The translations under genes and the position numbers were made by a program. Below the pieces are notes generated by a model. It had not been told where the DNA came from, did not search any database, and saw nothing but the letters and a program-made list of their open reading frames with translations. Shown in pieces: positions 3,197-38,257 of a stretch of 64,000 nt of DNA; the stretch's first letter is position 1; each line of letters starts with the position of its first letter. Source of the stretch: Escherichia coli (GTDB lineage: Bacteria; Pseudomonadota; Gammaproteobacteria; Enterobacterales; Enterobacteriaceae); NCBI RefSeq assembly GCF_051903065.1, contig NZ_CP178438.1; one strand, given 5' to 3'.

Positions 3197-3661
<465 letters not shown>

Positions 3662-3782
3662 TGACTTTTCGCCGTAAATAACTCCAGGTTTACGGCGAGT
3701 TTGTGAAAAGAGCGTTTTTTGATATTTTTTTGTGAGTAAAATTTGTAATGCTTAGACGTTCTTATTAACTCAAGGAGTTCGT

Positions 3783-3811
3783 CATGAGCAAAATATCAGA
3801 TTTGAATTATT
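3783..3811 (+). pseudogene. 5' stub (MSKISDLNY...) of a gene cut off by IS1; position corresponds to yjgL of K-12
   Basis: AAGGAG RBS at 3772-3777, ATG at 3783, reading frame runs straight into the IS1 terminal repeat at 3812. Confidence 0.45.
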
Positions 3812-3826
3812 GGTAATGACTCCAAC

Positions 3827-4330
3827 TTATTGATAGTGTTTTATGTTCAGATAATGCCCGATGACTTTGTCATGCAGCTCCACCGATTTTGAGAACGACA
3901 GCGACTTCCGTCCCAGCCGTGCCAGGTGCTGCCTCAGATTCAGGTTATGCCGCTCAATTCGCTGCGTATATCGCTTGCTGATTACGTGCAGCTTTCCCTT
4001 CAGGCGGGATTCATACAGCGGCCAGCCATCCGTCATCCATATCACCACGTCAAAGGGTGACAGCAGGCTCATAAGACGCCCCAGCGTCGCCATAGTGCGT
4101 TCACCGAATACGTGCGCAACAACCGTCTTCCGGAGCCTGTCATACGCGTAAAACAGCCAGCGCTGGCGCGATTTAGCCCCGACATAGCCCCACTGTTCGT
4201 CCATTTCCGCGCAGACGATGACGTCACTGCCCGGCTGTATGCGCGAGGTTACCGACTGCGGCCTGAGTTTTTTAAGTGACGTAAAATCGTGTTGAGGCCA
4301 ACGCCCATAATGCGGGCTGTTGCCCGGCAT
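3827..4330 (-). CDS. insB: IS1 transposase InsB
   Basis: 167-aa [29 protein letters not shown]... Confidence 0.9.
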
Positions 4331-4524
4331 CCAACGCCATTCATGGCCATATCAATGATTTTCTGGTGCGTACCGGGTTGAGAAGCGGTGTAAGTGAACT
4401 GCAGTTGCCATGTTTTACGGCAGTGAGAGCAGAGATAGCGCTGATGTCCGGCGGTGCTTTTGCCGTTACGCACCACCCCGTCAGTAGCTGAACAGGAGGG
4501 ACAGCTGATAGAAACAGAAGCCAC
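4249..4524 (-). CDS. insA: IS1 InsA
   Basis: 91-aa [43 protein letters not shown]... Confidence 0.9.
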
Positions 4525-4646
4525 TGGAGCACCTCAAAAACACCATCATACACTAAATCAGTAAGTTGGCAGCATCACCCACTGCATAAATTAATGTGAT
4601 GCCGGGATGTTTTTTGTGTTTCCCGGCATCTTTATAGCGATATCAA

Positions 4647-5651
4647 TTATTTACTGAGCGTCGCGACCATCACCGCTTTGATGGTATGCATGCGGTTTTC
4701 CGCCTGATCAAATACAATGCTGGCGGCAGATTCGAAGACCTCATCAGTCACTTCCATTCCGCCATGTAGGCCAAACTCTTCCGCCATTTTCTTGCCAAGC
4801 GTCGTCTGGTCGTCATGAAAAGCGGGCAGGCAGTGGAGGAATTTGACCTCAGGGTTACCAGTCAACTGCATCATCTTGCTGTTCACCTGATAATCACGCA
4901 GCAATGCAATGCGTTCAGCCCATTTCTCTTTTGCTTCACCCATCGACACCCATACATCGGTATAGATAAAGTCAGCACCTTCAACTCCTTTGGCTACATC
5001 TTCCGTCAGCGTAATATCCCCGCCATTTTGCTGTGCCAGGGCGCGGCATTCCGTAACCAGCGCAGCTTCCGGCCAGCATGCCTGTGGCGCGACCAGACGC
5101 AAATCCAGACCGGTAAGCGCCGCAGCTTCGAGCATCGAATTGCCCATGTTGTTACGTGCGTCACCTGCATAGACCAGCGTCATTTCGTTGAATGCTTTAC
5201 CGGGTAAATGCTCCTGCATGGTGAGGAGATCCGCCAGCAACTGCGTGGGGTGAAACTCATTGGTCAGGCCGTTCCATACCGGCACGCCAGCGTATTCCGC
5301 CAGTGTTTCGACAATCTCCTGACCATAGCCGCGATACTGAATACCGTCATACATGCGACCCAGCACGCGGGCAGTGTCTTTAATCGACTCTTTATGACCA
5401 ATCTGACTGCCGCTTGGGCCGAGATAAGTAACGCGAGCACCCTGGTCATATGCGGCAACTTCGAAAGAGCATCGGGTACGGGTCGAGTCTTTTTCGAAGA
5501 TGAGCGCGATGTTTTTACCAGTGAGTTTGGCTTCTTCTTTGCCGCTTTTCTTATTGGCTTTCAGCTTCGCGGCTAACTGCAGCAGGCTGTTGAGTTCAGC
5601 TGGCGTGAAATCGAGTAATTTCAGGAAATGCTTATGATAAAACCCGGACAT
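4647..5651 (-). CDS. argI: Ornithine carbamoyltransferase
   Basis: 334-aa ORF with STRTR carbamoyl-phosphate motif and HCLP motif; full-length match to ArgI as recalled; next to pyrBI as in K-12. Confidence 0.95.
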
Positions 5652-11539: not shown

Positions 11540-13391
<1,852 letters not shown>

Positions 13392-18649: not shown

Positions 18650-18844
18650 TTTTTGGTCCTTCTCTGGTGTTGTCTGGGAAGTGTAGAGCATGGCAGGGCG
18701 GGGTGCCTGGAGTGTGACAAAGGTTACACATCGCTGTATGCAATGCTGAAAATTTCAGCACTTAGCAAAGTGGGTGCAAGCTGGCGCTTGCATGGTGGCG
18801 TGCGACAGGTATAATCCACAACGTTTTCCGCATACCTCTTCAGT

Positions 18845-18929
18845 GCCGAAGTGGCGAAATCGGTAGACGCAGTTGATTCAAAATCAACCGTAGAAATACG
18901 TGCCGGTTCGAGTCCGGCCTTCGGCACCA
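18845..18929 (+). tRNA. leuX: tRNA-Leu(CAA)
   Basis: GCCGAAGTGGCGAAATCGGTAGACGCAGTTGATTCAAAATCAACC...GGTTCGAGTCCGGCCTTCGGCACCA, 85 nt with long variable arm and encoded CCA. Confidence 0.97.
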
Positions 18930-23104: not shown

Positions 23105-23455
23105 TTCAATTATCTCCGTTATTGCTCCGTTGCTGCAAGCAGTACTCAGTGCATTTTAAAACCCGCCATGCGATAGTCTCAATTGAATAAAATCGATCTA
23201 ATCGATAGATGATATCGATCGTCATTAACCAGAAATTTTTATCGTATTCAGTCAGCACAGATACAACAAATGCATGCCATGCAGACAGTCATACCCGGCA
23301 ACAACAGCAGATGGTTGCTGAGCAAGCAGGGAGTGAGGCTGAATCCCGGGGAAGAAAAAACCTGTAAAATTTGTTTATTCTGCCAGGAGATAAAAGTGAC
23401 GTGTGTTCATGTAACACACCAGGGACGAAAGATGCATGGACTGACAGTTTGGGGG

Positions 23456-24511
23456 GGCTTTGTTGAATAAATCGAACTTTTGCTGAGTTGAAGGATCAGA
23501 TCACGCATCCTCCCGACAACACAGACCATTCCGTGGCAAAGCAAAAGTTCAGAATCACCAACTGGTCCACCTACAACAAAGCTCTCATCAACCGTGGCTC
23601 CCTCACTTTCTGGCTGGATGATGAAGCGATTCAGGCCTGGTATGAGTCGGCAACGCCTTCATCACGAGGAAGGCCCCAGCGCTATTCTGATCTCGCCATC
23701 ACCACCGTTCTGGTGATTAAACGCGTATTCCGGCTGACCCTGCGGGCTGCGCAGGGTTTTATTGATTCCATTTTTGCCCTGATGAACGTTCCGTTGCGCT
23801 GCCCGGATTACACCAGTGTCAGTAAGCGGGCAAAGTCGGTTAATGTCAGTTTCAAAACGTCCACCCGGGGTGAAATCGCACACCTGGTGATTGATTCCAC
23901 CGGGCTGAAGGTCTTTGGTGAAGGCGAATGGAAAGTCAGAAAGCACGGCAAAGAGCGCCGTCGTATCTGGCGAAAGTTGCATCTTGCTGTTGACAGCAAC
24001 ACACATGAAGTTGTCTGTGCAGACCTGTCGCTGAATAACGTCACGGACTCAGAAGCCTTCCCGGGCCTTATCCGGCAGACTCACAGAAAAATCAGGGCAG
24101 CCGCGGCAGACGGGGCTTACGATACCCGGCTCTGTCACGATGAACTGCGCCGCAAAAAAATCAGCGCGCTTATTCCTCCCCGAAAAGGAGCAGGTTACTG
24201 GCCCGGTGAGTACGCAGACCGCAACCGTGCCGTTGCTAATCAGCGGCTGAGCGGAAGCAATGCACGGTGGAAATGGACAACGGAATATAACCGTCGCTCG
24301 ATAGCGGAAACGGCAATGTACAGAATGAAGCAGTTGTTGGGAGATTCACTGACGCTGCGTGACTACGATGGTCAGGTAGCGGAAGCTATGGCCATGGTGC
24401 GTGCGTTGAACAGGATGACAAAGGCTGGGATGCCAGAAAGCGTGCGTATTGCCTGAAAATCCAGCCAGCTACAGGGTCGTTCGCACGAAATCTTATTTAT
24501 TCAACAAAGCC
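23456..24511 (+). mobile_element. IS903-like element (IS5 family)
   Basis: Terminal inverted repeats GGCTTTGTTGAATAAATC (23456) and GATTTATTCAACAAAGCC-like (to 24511); no matching flanking duplication. Confidence 0.88.
23533..24456 (+). CDS. IS903-family transposase
   Basis: VAKQKFRITNWSTYNKALINRGSLTFWLDDEAIQAWY... matches IS903/IS102 transposase as recalled; probable GTG start at 23533. Confidence 0.88.
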   Translation: MAKQKFRITNWSTYNKALINRGSLTFWLDDEAIQAWYESATPSSRGRPQRYSDLAITTVLVIKRVFRLTLRAAQGFIDSIFALMNVPLRCPDYTSVSKRAKSVNVSFKTSTRGEIAHLVIDSTGLKVFGEGEWKVRKHGKERRRIWRKLHLAVDSNTHEVVCADLSLNNVTDSEAFPGLIRQTHRKIRAAAADGAYDTRLCHDELRRKKISALIPPRKGAGYWPGEYADRNRAVANQRLSGSNARWKWTTEYNRRSIAETAMYRMKQLLGDSLTLRDYDGQVAEAMAMVRALNRMTKAGMPESVRIA

Positions 24512-25624
24512 CATACCCCTCTGAAAATCAGTCATCAACTCACCAACACATCTTCTGAAATCTGTATTAAACTTATTGCTTAAATAGATGATATAACACA
24601 TCTTCCATTGCACGGAATCAGCGAAAACTGTCATTCTGGCAATCTTAACAAGATCATTTATCGGTTAATTTTATCAGTAAACAATGGAATATCACACTGA
24701 TAAAATGAACATTCAGGGTAAGATGATAAAATTCACATAAAAAATGCTGAAGATTATTTATTTCATGCAGATAAACGATAAAATACAAGAGAGTATATTT
24801 TTCAGTGTAAGAGTCAATCGTTCATCTCCACTGACGATCACGGTCAGCACATAAACAAAGTGAGTCCTCCTGCTTAGTCATTGCGTATCAGAAACTAAAA
24901 AACAAAAGATTCTGTAAACAACGTGACATTTTTTATGACATTTCCCGAATACAGATATATCAACAAACAGTAGTCAGCGTTGAATTAATAAGTTTTACAG
25001 GGCTATACGTATCTTATAAAACCACTCAACGACCATCATCACCTGACTATTTAGCGGGAGTATCATCTGTATAAATTCCTAAATAATAACACCTGTTATT
25101 AAAATAAGAATGCTGTCAGCAGTAAATTATTAACATAACACCTGTCCACTCTATCTGTTCTTCTAACTCAACCGGCATCGAAAATATTGCCTGATTAGTG
25201 CATCATAGCCTTCTTTTTTCTTTCCCGACCATCAAAACAAATACAACATTTACAACCACACAATAAAACAAAACTAAAACAAAACTAAAACATAAGATTA
25301 ACAACACCAATCAACAGGAAAACACTGAATATTGAGGTGCCCTGTAACCTGGAGAGCGCATACGGCGCATGTGATCAACACAGCCCATTCTTTTCTGTCA
25401 TCCCCCAAATGCAGAACAAACAAGCATAACCTAATGAATATAAAATAAAATATTATTTTTCACCATCATAAAAACATCAATGTATCTTTATATAAAAACA
25501 CTGATAACATGACATAAACATTTAAAAACATAAACAAATCACAACAAAAACATTTGATAATCACTTAGTGACAAAATAAAATTGAGACGATTTTGTTATA
25601 AGAGAGGCGCCATGGAGTGAGATA

Positions 25625-32968: not shown

Positions 32969-33181
32969 ATGAAAACTTTTATCAAAACTTTACTCGTTGC
33001 TGTAACTATTCTGTTCTCTGTCTTCGCTACTGCGAAACAAGTAAAACTGCCAAATAACATCAAATACGTTAATACTACAGAAGCGTTTTCCTGTACCGAA
33101 ATTGACGGTATGAATTGCCAGACAAAGAATCAGTTCAACTATAAAGATAACAGCTATGTGGTGATGCTGCCAACTTACTGA
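32969..33181 (+). pseudogene. Small secreted-protein gene truncated by IS1 (last 6 codons and stop lie in the IS1 terminal repeat)
   Basis: Signal peptide MKTFIKTLLVAVTILFSVFATA; frame runs into GGTGATGCTGCCAACTTACTGA of IS1. Confidence 0.5.
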
Positions 33182-33214
33182 TTTAGTGTATGATGGTGTT
33201 TTTGAGGTGCTCCA

Positions 33215-33490
33215 GTGGCTTCTGTTTCTATCAGCTGTCCCTCCTGTTCAGCTACTGAAGGCGTGGTGCGTAACGGTAAAAGCACTGCCGGACATCAGCG
33301 CTATCTCTGCTCTCACTGCCGTAAAACATGGCAACTGCAGTTCACTTACACCGCTTCTCAACCCGGTACGCACCAGAAAATCATTGATATGGCCATGAAT
33401 GGCGTTGGATGCCGGGCAACTGCCCGCATTATGGGCGTTGGCCTCAACACGGTTTTACGTCACTTAAAAAACTCAGGCCGCAGTCGGTAA
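33215..33490 (+). CDS. insA: IS1 InsA
   Basis: 91-aa [21 protein letters not shown]... Confidence 0.9.
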
Positions 33491-33912
33491 CCTCGCGCAT
33501 ACAGCTGGGCAGTGACGTCATCGTCTGCGCGGAAATGGACGAACAGTGGGGATACGTCGGGGCTAAATCGCGCCAGCGCTGGCTGTTTTACGCGTATGAC
33601 AGGCTCCGGAAGACGGTTGTTGCGCACGTATTCGGTGAACGCACTATGGCGACGCTGGGGCGTCTTATGAGCCTGCTGTCACCCTTTGACGTGGTGATAT
33701 GGATGACGGATGGCTGGCCGCTGTATGAATCCCGCCTGAAGGGAAAGCTGCACGTAATCAGCAAGCGATATACGCAGCGAATTGAGCGGCATAACCTGAA
33801 TCTGAGGCAGCACCTGGCACGGCTGGGACGGAAGTCGCTGTCGTTCTCAAAATCGGTGGAGCTGCATGACAAAGTCATCGGGCATTATCTGAACATAAAA
33901 CACTATCAATAA
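33409..33912 (+). CDS. insB: IS1 transposase InsB
   Basis: 167-aa [24 protein letters not shown]... Confidence 0.9.
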
Positions 33913-34216
33913 GTTGGAGTCATTACCCACTTTTTGAAAGCAACCAGATGATAGGGTAAAGATAAGTGCTGTGTTCGGCGGTAAATTCTCAGTACCACCC
34001 ATTGAAAATCGAACGGGGAAACGGGAAATTTGGAGCAAAGTGCTGGTATGCAAGGGATGTGTGGATCTCTGTGACGGGAAAACTACGGGGATATTGCGGG
34101 AAAGGGACGGGGGAAAGGTTCTATGTTGATGCTGATCAGATCTTTTCTAGTTTGCACTTGCTCATACCGTGAACAGCGTTAGTGTGGTGAGCATCATTTG
34201 CCAAAAGGGTTAGACA

Positions 34217-37300: not shown

Positions 37301-37389
37301 AATCTACGTCAGGAATAGAGCCAATAGAAATGTTGAAGGGGAGGCCAGATCAAATGCAATTATGCCCTTATCTGGGTAGTGACTCCAAC

Positions 37390-37893
37390 TTATTGATAGT
37401 GTTTTATGTTCAGATAATGCCCGATGACTTTGTCATGCAGCTCCACCGATTTTGAGAACGACAGCGACTTCCGTCCCAGCCGTGCCAGGTGCTGCCTCAG
37501 ATTCAGGTTATGCCGCTCAATTCGCTGCGTATATCGCTTGCTGATTACGTGCAGCTTTCCCTTCAGGCGGGATTCATACAGCGGCCAGCCATCCGTCATC
37601 CATATCACCACGTCAAAGGGTGACAGCAGGCTCATAAGACGCCCCAGCGTCGCCATAGTGCGTTCACCGAATACGTGCGCAACAACCGTCTTCCGGAGCC
37701 TGTCATACGCGTAAAACAGCCAGCGCTGGCGCGATTTAGCCCCGACATAGCCCCACTGTTCGTCCATTTCCGCGCAGACGATGACGTCACTGCCCGGCTG
37801 TATGCGCGAGGTTACCGACTGCGGCCTGAGTTTTTTAAGTGACGTAAAATCGTGTTGAGGCCAACGCCCATAATGCGGGCTGTTGCCCGGCAT
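37390..37893 (-). CDS. insB: IS1 transposase InsB
   Basis: 167-aa ORF identical to copy A InsB. Confidence 0.9.
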
Positions 37894-38087
37894 CCAACGC
37901 CATTCATGGCCATATCAATGATTTTCTGGTGCGTACCGGGTTGAGAAGCGGTGTAAGTGAACTGCAGTTGCCATGTTTTACGGCAGTGAGAGCAGAGATA
38001 GCGCTGATGTCCGGCAGTGCTTTTACCGTTACGCACCACGCCTTCAGTAGCTGAACAGGAGGGACAGCTGATAGAAACAGAAGCCAC
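37812..38087 (-). CDS. insA: IS1 InsA
   Basis: 91-aa [21 protein letters not shown]...NTILRHLK. Confidence 0.9.
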
Positions 38088-38257
38088 TGGAGCACCTCAA
38101 AAACACCATCATACACTAAATCAGTAAGTTGGCACCATTACCAGAAATAGTGACCAATAACTATTTATGTAAATTACATTAAAAACAAAAAAAATACTGC
38201 GCTCTTTATTTTTTACTTATTATCTGATAAAGTATCCCTCGTAGATTTATATAGGGG

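Follow-up and report, generated by a model that had tools for sequence, protein, structure and literature searches.

IS1-associated deletion is a kind of event known since the 1970s, and IS1-promoted deletions are said to have been described in classical work by Reif and Saedler in 1975 and by Turlan and Chandler in 1995. The IS1 copy described here lies in a 64,000-nucleotide stretch of Escherichia coli DNA (hereafter the window). It resembles the classical IS1-promoted adjacent deletions of gal and Tn9 in that the IS1 is intact, DNA is lost from an IS1 terminus, there is no target-site duplication (TSD) and the flanks are colinear. Unlike those deletions, the event in the window was read from sequence rather than watched, and recombination yields the same product. 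A further parallel is found in the IS150 'IS-del' mutations of the long-term evolution experiment (PMC11708052), which likewise have an IS at the deletion boundary and no TSD. However, a different IS family is involved and a time series proved the order of events there, whereas the window event is known from one allele. For all 14 IS-plus-deletion events in that experiment, the history could be followed back to an insertion and a subsequent adjacent deletion. Missing TSDs are ascribed to either adjacent deletion or inter-IS recombination, and a one-step insertion of an IS into a DNA break has been proposed for some IS5 and IS481 events (PMC11708052).

The gene concerned, yjgL, is also known from Shigella flexneri, where its orthologue icaR (gem3) is activated by MxiE/IpgC via a MxiE box in the promoter and encodes a protein exported by the type III apparatus; in E. 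coli strains that lack pINV, yjgL/icaR is silent, and neutral evolution is thought likely (PMC9241512, PMC9769918). IS-truncated icaR/yjgL has been reported from Shigella and from E. coli W, UMN026 and E2348/69 (Silue et al. 2022, PMC9241512), the main text of which makes no mention of IS1. The window resembles these cases in that the same gene is broken by an insertion sequence. However, the published cases are C-terminal truncations with a large N-terminal part, which for truncated IcaR of Shigella is still expressed and secreted (PMC9241512), whereas the window keeps only 9 codons and is a null allele, with YjgL/IcaR wholly lost.

In K-12 MG1655 the gene order is tabA, yjgL (1,815 bp, 604 aa), argI. 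An initial sequence-only reading of the window, made without database searches, took a large ORF, yjgL, to occupy this position in K-12 and proposed that IS1 stands in place of nearly the whole gene without a TSD. Alignment to K-12 bears out both points. The window flanks of the IS1 occur in K-12 in the same order and orientation but 1,777 bp apart (yjgL nt 28 versus nt 1806), with nt 29-1805 absent from the window. The flanks are not contiguous in the reference, as the simple insertion named in the same reading as a possible refutation would require. Both breakpoints are inside yjgL, and the deletion endpoints coincide with the IS1 termini to the nucleotide. The synteny bdcA-bdcR-tabA-(yjgL)-argI-rraB is otherwise kept. 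When four yjgL alleles were compared with the 64-kb window they matched only at the 28-nt stub, with no relocated interior in the window; an inverted or translocated yjgL interior can therefore be rejected for the window.

On the left, tabA (yjgK; 3209-3661, plus strand) is intact; it aligns to K-12 tabA and is annotated as such in the near-identical genome 23CRST027. Next comes the whole tabA-yjgL intergenic region, including the yjgL promoter and 5′ UTR (3662-3783, plus strand, from alignment to K-12), and window 3209-3811 as a whole is 97.8% identical to K-12 without gaps. The strong RBS that had been picked out (AAGGAG) is present at 3772-3777, whilst the yjgL ATG is at 3784-3786 and not, as first read, at 3783. 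The yjgL/icaR 5′ stub (3784-3811, plus strand) consists of 28 nt, i.e. 9 codons and one nucleotide, and is the start of K-12 yjgL (nt 1-28), sharing 27/28 nt with K-12 and 28/28 with the I3 and JSMCR1 alleles. A frame of only 9-10 codons before the IS1 at 3812 had been counted correctly: the IS1 end completes the tenth codon and supplies a TAA, and on translation the open frame ends at 3816 (MSKISDLNYW, then stop). A consensus for the MxiE box (GTATCGTTTTTTTANAG, allowing up to 3 mismatches) had no match within the window. The whole tabA-yjgL spacer is retained, and our claim for the MxiE-box region is limited to that.

On the right, the last 10 nt of yjgL including its TAA stop (CACTGCATAA; 4580-4589, plus strand) are left, an exact match to K-12 yjgL nt 1806-1815 (10/10). 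The distance of 67 bp from IS1 to the argI stop at 4647 (4580-4646) had been measured correctly, with the refinement that its first 10 nt belong to yjgL. The remainder of the spacer retains a hairpin with a 10-bp GC-rich stem (4598-4630), an inverted repeat present at the same place in K-12. Its RNA fold of -19.3 kcal/mol (z = -3.2) is presumably that of a bidirectional terminator. A simple terminator scan did not call this hairpin, and a promoter and terminator scan of 3600-4700 was uninformative. The downstream neighbour, the ornithine carbamoyltransferase gene argI (4647-5651, minus strand; labelled argF by PGAP), is an intact ORF that aligns to K-12 argI.

The element itself is a complete IS1 of 768 bp (3812-4579, minus strand) whose transposase genes are antiparallel to yjgL. 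An inverted-repeat search placed its insB-side end (GGTAATGACTCC...) at 3812-3834 and its insA-side end (...GGCAGCATCACC) at 4557-4579; these 23-nt arms are imperfect, being 78% complementary, and lie 722 nt apart. Both the length of about 768 bp and the imperfect ends of about 23 bp (GGTGATGCTGCC... / GGTAATGACTCC...) expected of IS1 are found. An ORF for insA (91 aa, 4249-4524, minus strand) carries the Pfam domains Zn_ribbon_InsA (E=1.3e-21) and HTH_Tnp_IS1 (E=4.7e-31), and the insB' frame (167 aa, 3827-4330, minus strand) carries DDE_Tnp_IS1 (E=2.3e-78), all three being far over the cut-off. An A6C frameshift motif is located at 4267-4273 (plus-strand GTTTTTT), with insB' reached by a -1 frameshift from insA. 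The 768 bp are 100% identical to an IS1 copy in strain YZ22MPE54 that PGAP annotates as an IS1A transposase with programmed frameshift, an identity which suggests that the copy in the window is very probably active. Since the two copies are identical, the surviving IS1 also bears no visible mosaic signal. One C of the element, at window 4079, is absent in 23CRST027 and is the sole difference between that genome and the first 18,928 bp of the window. The IS1 transposase of 23CRST027 is annotated as frameshifted owing to this missing base, which is a genuine inactivating mutation or else an assembly error in a homopolymer.

A TSD is the mark of an insertion event and not of the element, and its lack at this IS1 shows a secondary rearrangement. 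The true 9-bp flanks, TGAATTATT on the left and CACTGCATA on the right, share no repeat of 4 nt or longer, and the 8-9-bp duplication of a simple IS1 insertion is absent from 3812-4579. The flanks had been given as gaattattg and cactgcata; they do differ, but the left 9-mer takes in the first G of IS1. As a control, the same script was applied to IS1 copies in the yjgL of other genomes, 12 of which proved to have 8-9-bp duplications. Therefore, the absence of a TSD here is meaningful and no artefact of the method.

The size of the loss depends on the ancestral allele. Within yjgL an 18-bp unit, which encodes (L-N-N-x-Q-E/K)n, is repeated in tandem about 12 times (L005 5993-6216, corresponding to K-12 yjgL nt 556-779). 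The copy number of this unit differs by lineage, and intact yjgL alleles therefore vary in length by up to about 130 bp. Because of this array the loss can only be given as a range: the missing segment in the closest flanking haplotypes is 1.6-1.76 kb, and the window lineage would have lost about 1.6-1.8 kb of yjgL. The gene has a GC content of 32%, lower than the 50-52% of the genes beside it. For K-12 YjgL, Pfam gave no significant domain and NCBIfam nothing; the only match is a sub-threshold one to the SopA central domain in Pfam (24.6 bits versus a cut-off of 27), in agreement with the publication. Frameshifts or internal stops in yjgL were seen in many of the genomes fetched, both IS1-free and IS1-bearing, which fits relaxed selection in E. 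coli.

Twenty five genomes were fetched at this locus and every IS1 junction was mapped onto K-12 yjgL coordinates. There are 21 distinct IS1 junction positions in yjgL, in both orientations, 12 with an 8-9-bp TSD and 9 without. The 12 TSD-bearing simple insertions are all in the orientation of the window and are spread along the gene, at nt 34-42 (YZ22MPE54), about 345-353 (2013C_3678), about 388-395 (SWYHX138), about 507-514 (23AR0303), about 527-533 (TUM13881), about 1185-1191 (RIVM_C037794), 1286-1294 (O104:H4), approximately in the 3′ third (FDAARGOS_1291, Ecol_276 and JSMCR1), 1753-1762 (AVS0247) and 1801-1809 (I3). The TSD-less copies are those of the window lineage, EC0026B, KFu014, 2017.18.04CC and ET734 and, in the opposite orientation, WWCOL-236, ECNB21-M121, E04 and QML220614. 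Seven of these (KFu014, 2017.18.04CC, WWCOL-236, EC0026B, E04, ECNB21-M121 and QML220614) are parallel deletions, in which a TSD-less IS1 replaces from about 0.8 to about 1.9 kb between tabA and argI. They differ from the window in their breakpoints and occur in both orientations; three begin in the tabA-yjgL spacer and one takes tabA. Only the window lineage, among the yjgL deletions compared, keeps the start and the stop codon with the interior gone.

Two of the other loci are of interest in their own right. In QML220614 (L024 2611-3378; TUM17668 and PK8276 show the same span) tabA codon 17 is linked to yjgL nt 1397 through a TSD-less IS1 in the opposite orientation, and IS1-associated deletions here can therefore remove the biofilm gene tabA too. 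ET734 (L007 3554-5015) carries two IS1-family copies back to back with an overlap of about 11 bp, starting from yjgL nt 11; beyond them, a P4-type integrase and a phage portal gene stand in place of yjgL and argI. Here IS1 is associated with a larger rearrangement of the site.

A strict orientation bias of IS1 in yjgL had been suspected from same-strand-only searches. This was ruled out with a composite query containing a flipped IS1, which gave 56 genomes oriented as in the window and at least 27 with the opposite orientation. With an estimated 10.6 or so chromosomal IS1 ends per genome, about 23 genomes would be expected to have IS1 in the roughly 2-kb tabA-argI interval were insertion uniform, whereas at least 83/5,426 genomes (about 1.5-1.8%) do. 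This is an excess of about 4-fold by a rough calculation, uncorrected for clonal sampling and phylogeny. IS1 favours AT-rich targets, and AT-richness together with dispensability can explain such an excess. It is doubtful, in our view, that yjgL/icaR is more than a passive target, be it through selection for losing a silent type III secretion substrate gene in commensals or through chromatin targeting of H-NS/IHF-bound, bent, 32%-GC DNA.

Both junctions of the window, identical over 140-bp junction queries, are present in 2 of 5,426 complete E. coli genomes, 23CRST027 and 23CRST031, both from human faeces in Ecuador. The tabA-argI flanks are 100% identical only in these two, and the core of the window matches 23CRST027 at 18,927 of the first 18,928 positions. 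The exact IS1 junctions, common only to the window, 23CRST027 and 23CRST031, are therefore a lineage marker. The next-best flanking haplotypes are 99.3-99.4% identical, and nearly all have a yjgL-sized insert of 1.6-1.8 kb. Isolates of the same lineage, proposed by the sequence-only reading as the place to look for the intact gene, were examined, and only ones already carrying the deletion were found: none of the 5,426 complete genomes is a close relative with an intact yjgL, all of the 100%-flank matches being already deleted. Nor did any of the 5,426 have only one of the two IS1 junctions. Searches of metagenome contigs with exact patterns for either intermediate junction (assuming an 8-9-bp TSD and the window or K-12 allele) returned zero matches, which is weak negative evidence.

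Just past the leuX tRNA-Leu gene (18844-18928) the window stops matching 23CRST027. The remainder (18929-64000) is an island of at least 45 kb, of which 19,000-64,000 is 99.9-100% identical to the leuX island of GDSC2BY4G. It contains an integrase, a phosphoethanolamine transferase, a YadA-like protein, dynamin-family and patatin-like proteins, a group II intron, IS110 and IS3. The leuX site of 23CRST027 is occupied by another island (type I R-M, McrBC), beyond which lie the nan and fim genes. Given a 23CRST027-like core with a different leuX island, the window represents either a third strain of the 23CRST027 lineage or a recombinant carrying that core segment. GDSC2BY4G was considered as a relative and rejected, as its core is about 1.2-1.7% divergent across aligned blocks and only the leuX island is shared; its yjgL has no IS1 but is frameshifted (L020 18195-19822). 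Two more complete IS1 copies are found in the leuX island of the window (33160-33927 and 37375-38142), inverted and about 3.4 kb apart. Their identity to the yjgL copy is 98.8-99.1%, both lack a TSD and their flanks do not pair as a simple inversion, probably reflecting further IS1-mediated rearrangement in the island. A segment of about 1.06 kb in the island (23452-24512) shares about 88% identity with the IS903B copies of 23CRST027 and is therefore a diverged IS903/IS5-family element. Within the core, the holC-pepA spacer (11574-11871) contains tandem repeat units of about 100 bp, seen as BLAST self-offset matches, which are probably a known intergenic repeat.

Endpoints at both IS1 termini, a complete element and colinear flanks together argue that yjgL was lost via the IS1 ends or IS1 homology. 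An IS1-mediated adjacent deletion, as the sequence-only reading proposed, is the likeliest pathway and on balance a probable one, but it is not proven, the same product being expected from recombination of two same-orientation IS1 copies. IS1 would first have transposed into the AT-rich, dispensable yjgL near one end; from there its transposase would have driven a replicative transposition within the same molecule, to a site near the opposite end of the gene. Everything between the element and that second site (K-12 yjgL nt 29-1805, 1,777 bp) would have been lost, leaving one intact IS1 and no TSD. We infer both this two-step order and the role of the transposase. An intact IS1 at the boundary, an endpoint at its terminus, the missing TSD and the colinear flanks are all as an adjacent deletion would leave them, and a contiguous loss of yjgL that begins precisely at an IS1 terminus is the hallmark of an IS-mediated deletion. 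Moreover, the lack of a TSD here contrasts with the 8-9-bp TSDs at the 12 simple insertions in yjgL, and all 9 of the 9 TSD-less copies in yjgL have either a contiguous loss from an IS1 end or a rearrangement. Against this stands the identical product of recombination, together with the failure to find a single-IS1 ancestor at either junction, be it in the 5,426 complete genomes or in the metagenome contigs. Two same-orientation insertions near the 5′ and 3′ ends of yjgL, followed by a RecA-dependent recombination removing the interior and one IS1 copy, would leave exactly what is seen (one intact IS1, no TSD, colinear flanks), and inter-IS recombination is a recognised source of missing TSDs (PMC11708052). 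The gene is a recurrent IS1 target, as the 21 junction positions in the 25 fetched genomes attest, and 23CRST027 has at least 36 IS1-matching places; in so IS1-rich a lineage double insertions are therefore not far-fetched. Both junction neighbourhoods are IS1 targets elsewhere, as other lineages carry single insertions in the orientation of the window at a distance of 5-6 bp from either junction (nt 34-42 in YZ22MPE54, nt 1801-1809 in I3), although adjacent deletion and recombination alike require the targeting of both neighbourhoods. Recombination needs three events, two of them insertions into a 1.8-kb gene, whereas adjacent deletion needs two. None of the fetched genomes shows a pair of separated IS1 copies on either side of yjgL DNA, the sole double copy (ET734) being back to back, and the searches of complete genomes and metagenome contigs that gave no single-IS1 ancestor yielded no intermediate for recombination either. 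We therefore regard recombination as a possible but distinctly less likely route than adjacent deletion.

The absence of any intermediate would also be accounted for if IS1 had inserted in one step into the broken ends of an unrelated deletion, with no prior IS1 at the site and no TSD, a mechanism put forward to explain TSD-less IS copies found in the middle of deletions (PMC11708052). However, this mechanism is still a hypothesis, for IS1 in particular, and every traceable case in the same study was a two-step adjacent deletion. With only three sampled genomes of the lineage, missing intermediates are to be expected anyway, and we consider the one-step route very improbable. That the locus is a simple IS1 insertion, a mis-assembly across the repeated IS1, or a lineage that never had yjgL has in its favour only that IS1 is a repeat, with three copies in the window. 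These readings can be set aside as refuted. Flanks 1,777 bp apart in K-12 with recognisable yjgL ends speak against both a simple insertion and a lineage never in possession of the gene, which is further contradicted by the yjgL-sized insert in nearly all of the next-closest haplotypes. Identical junctions in two independently assembled complete genomes make an assembly artefact unlikely.

In the window the yjgL promoter would now drive only a 10-codon frame entering IS1 antisense to insAB, and no effect of the deletion on tabA or argI is expected. The allele thus matters little, its gene being of obscure function and silent without Shigella MxiE/IpgC and its neighbours untouched. It is an ordinary IS1-associated null deletion of a decaying, silent gene whose truncation by IS is already published, although it makes a clean textbook case of a TSD-less IS1 marking a deletion. 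Loss of yjgL of this kind has many separate occurrences at the same gene, and the frequency of independent IS1 strikes and erosion there is an extension of only mild interest. Taken together, this repeated IS1 erosion of yjgL/icaR bears on whether the ancient type III secretion substrate genes icaR and icaT are undergoing neutral decay outside Shigella.
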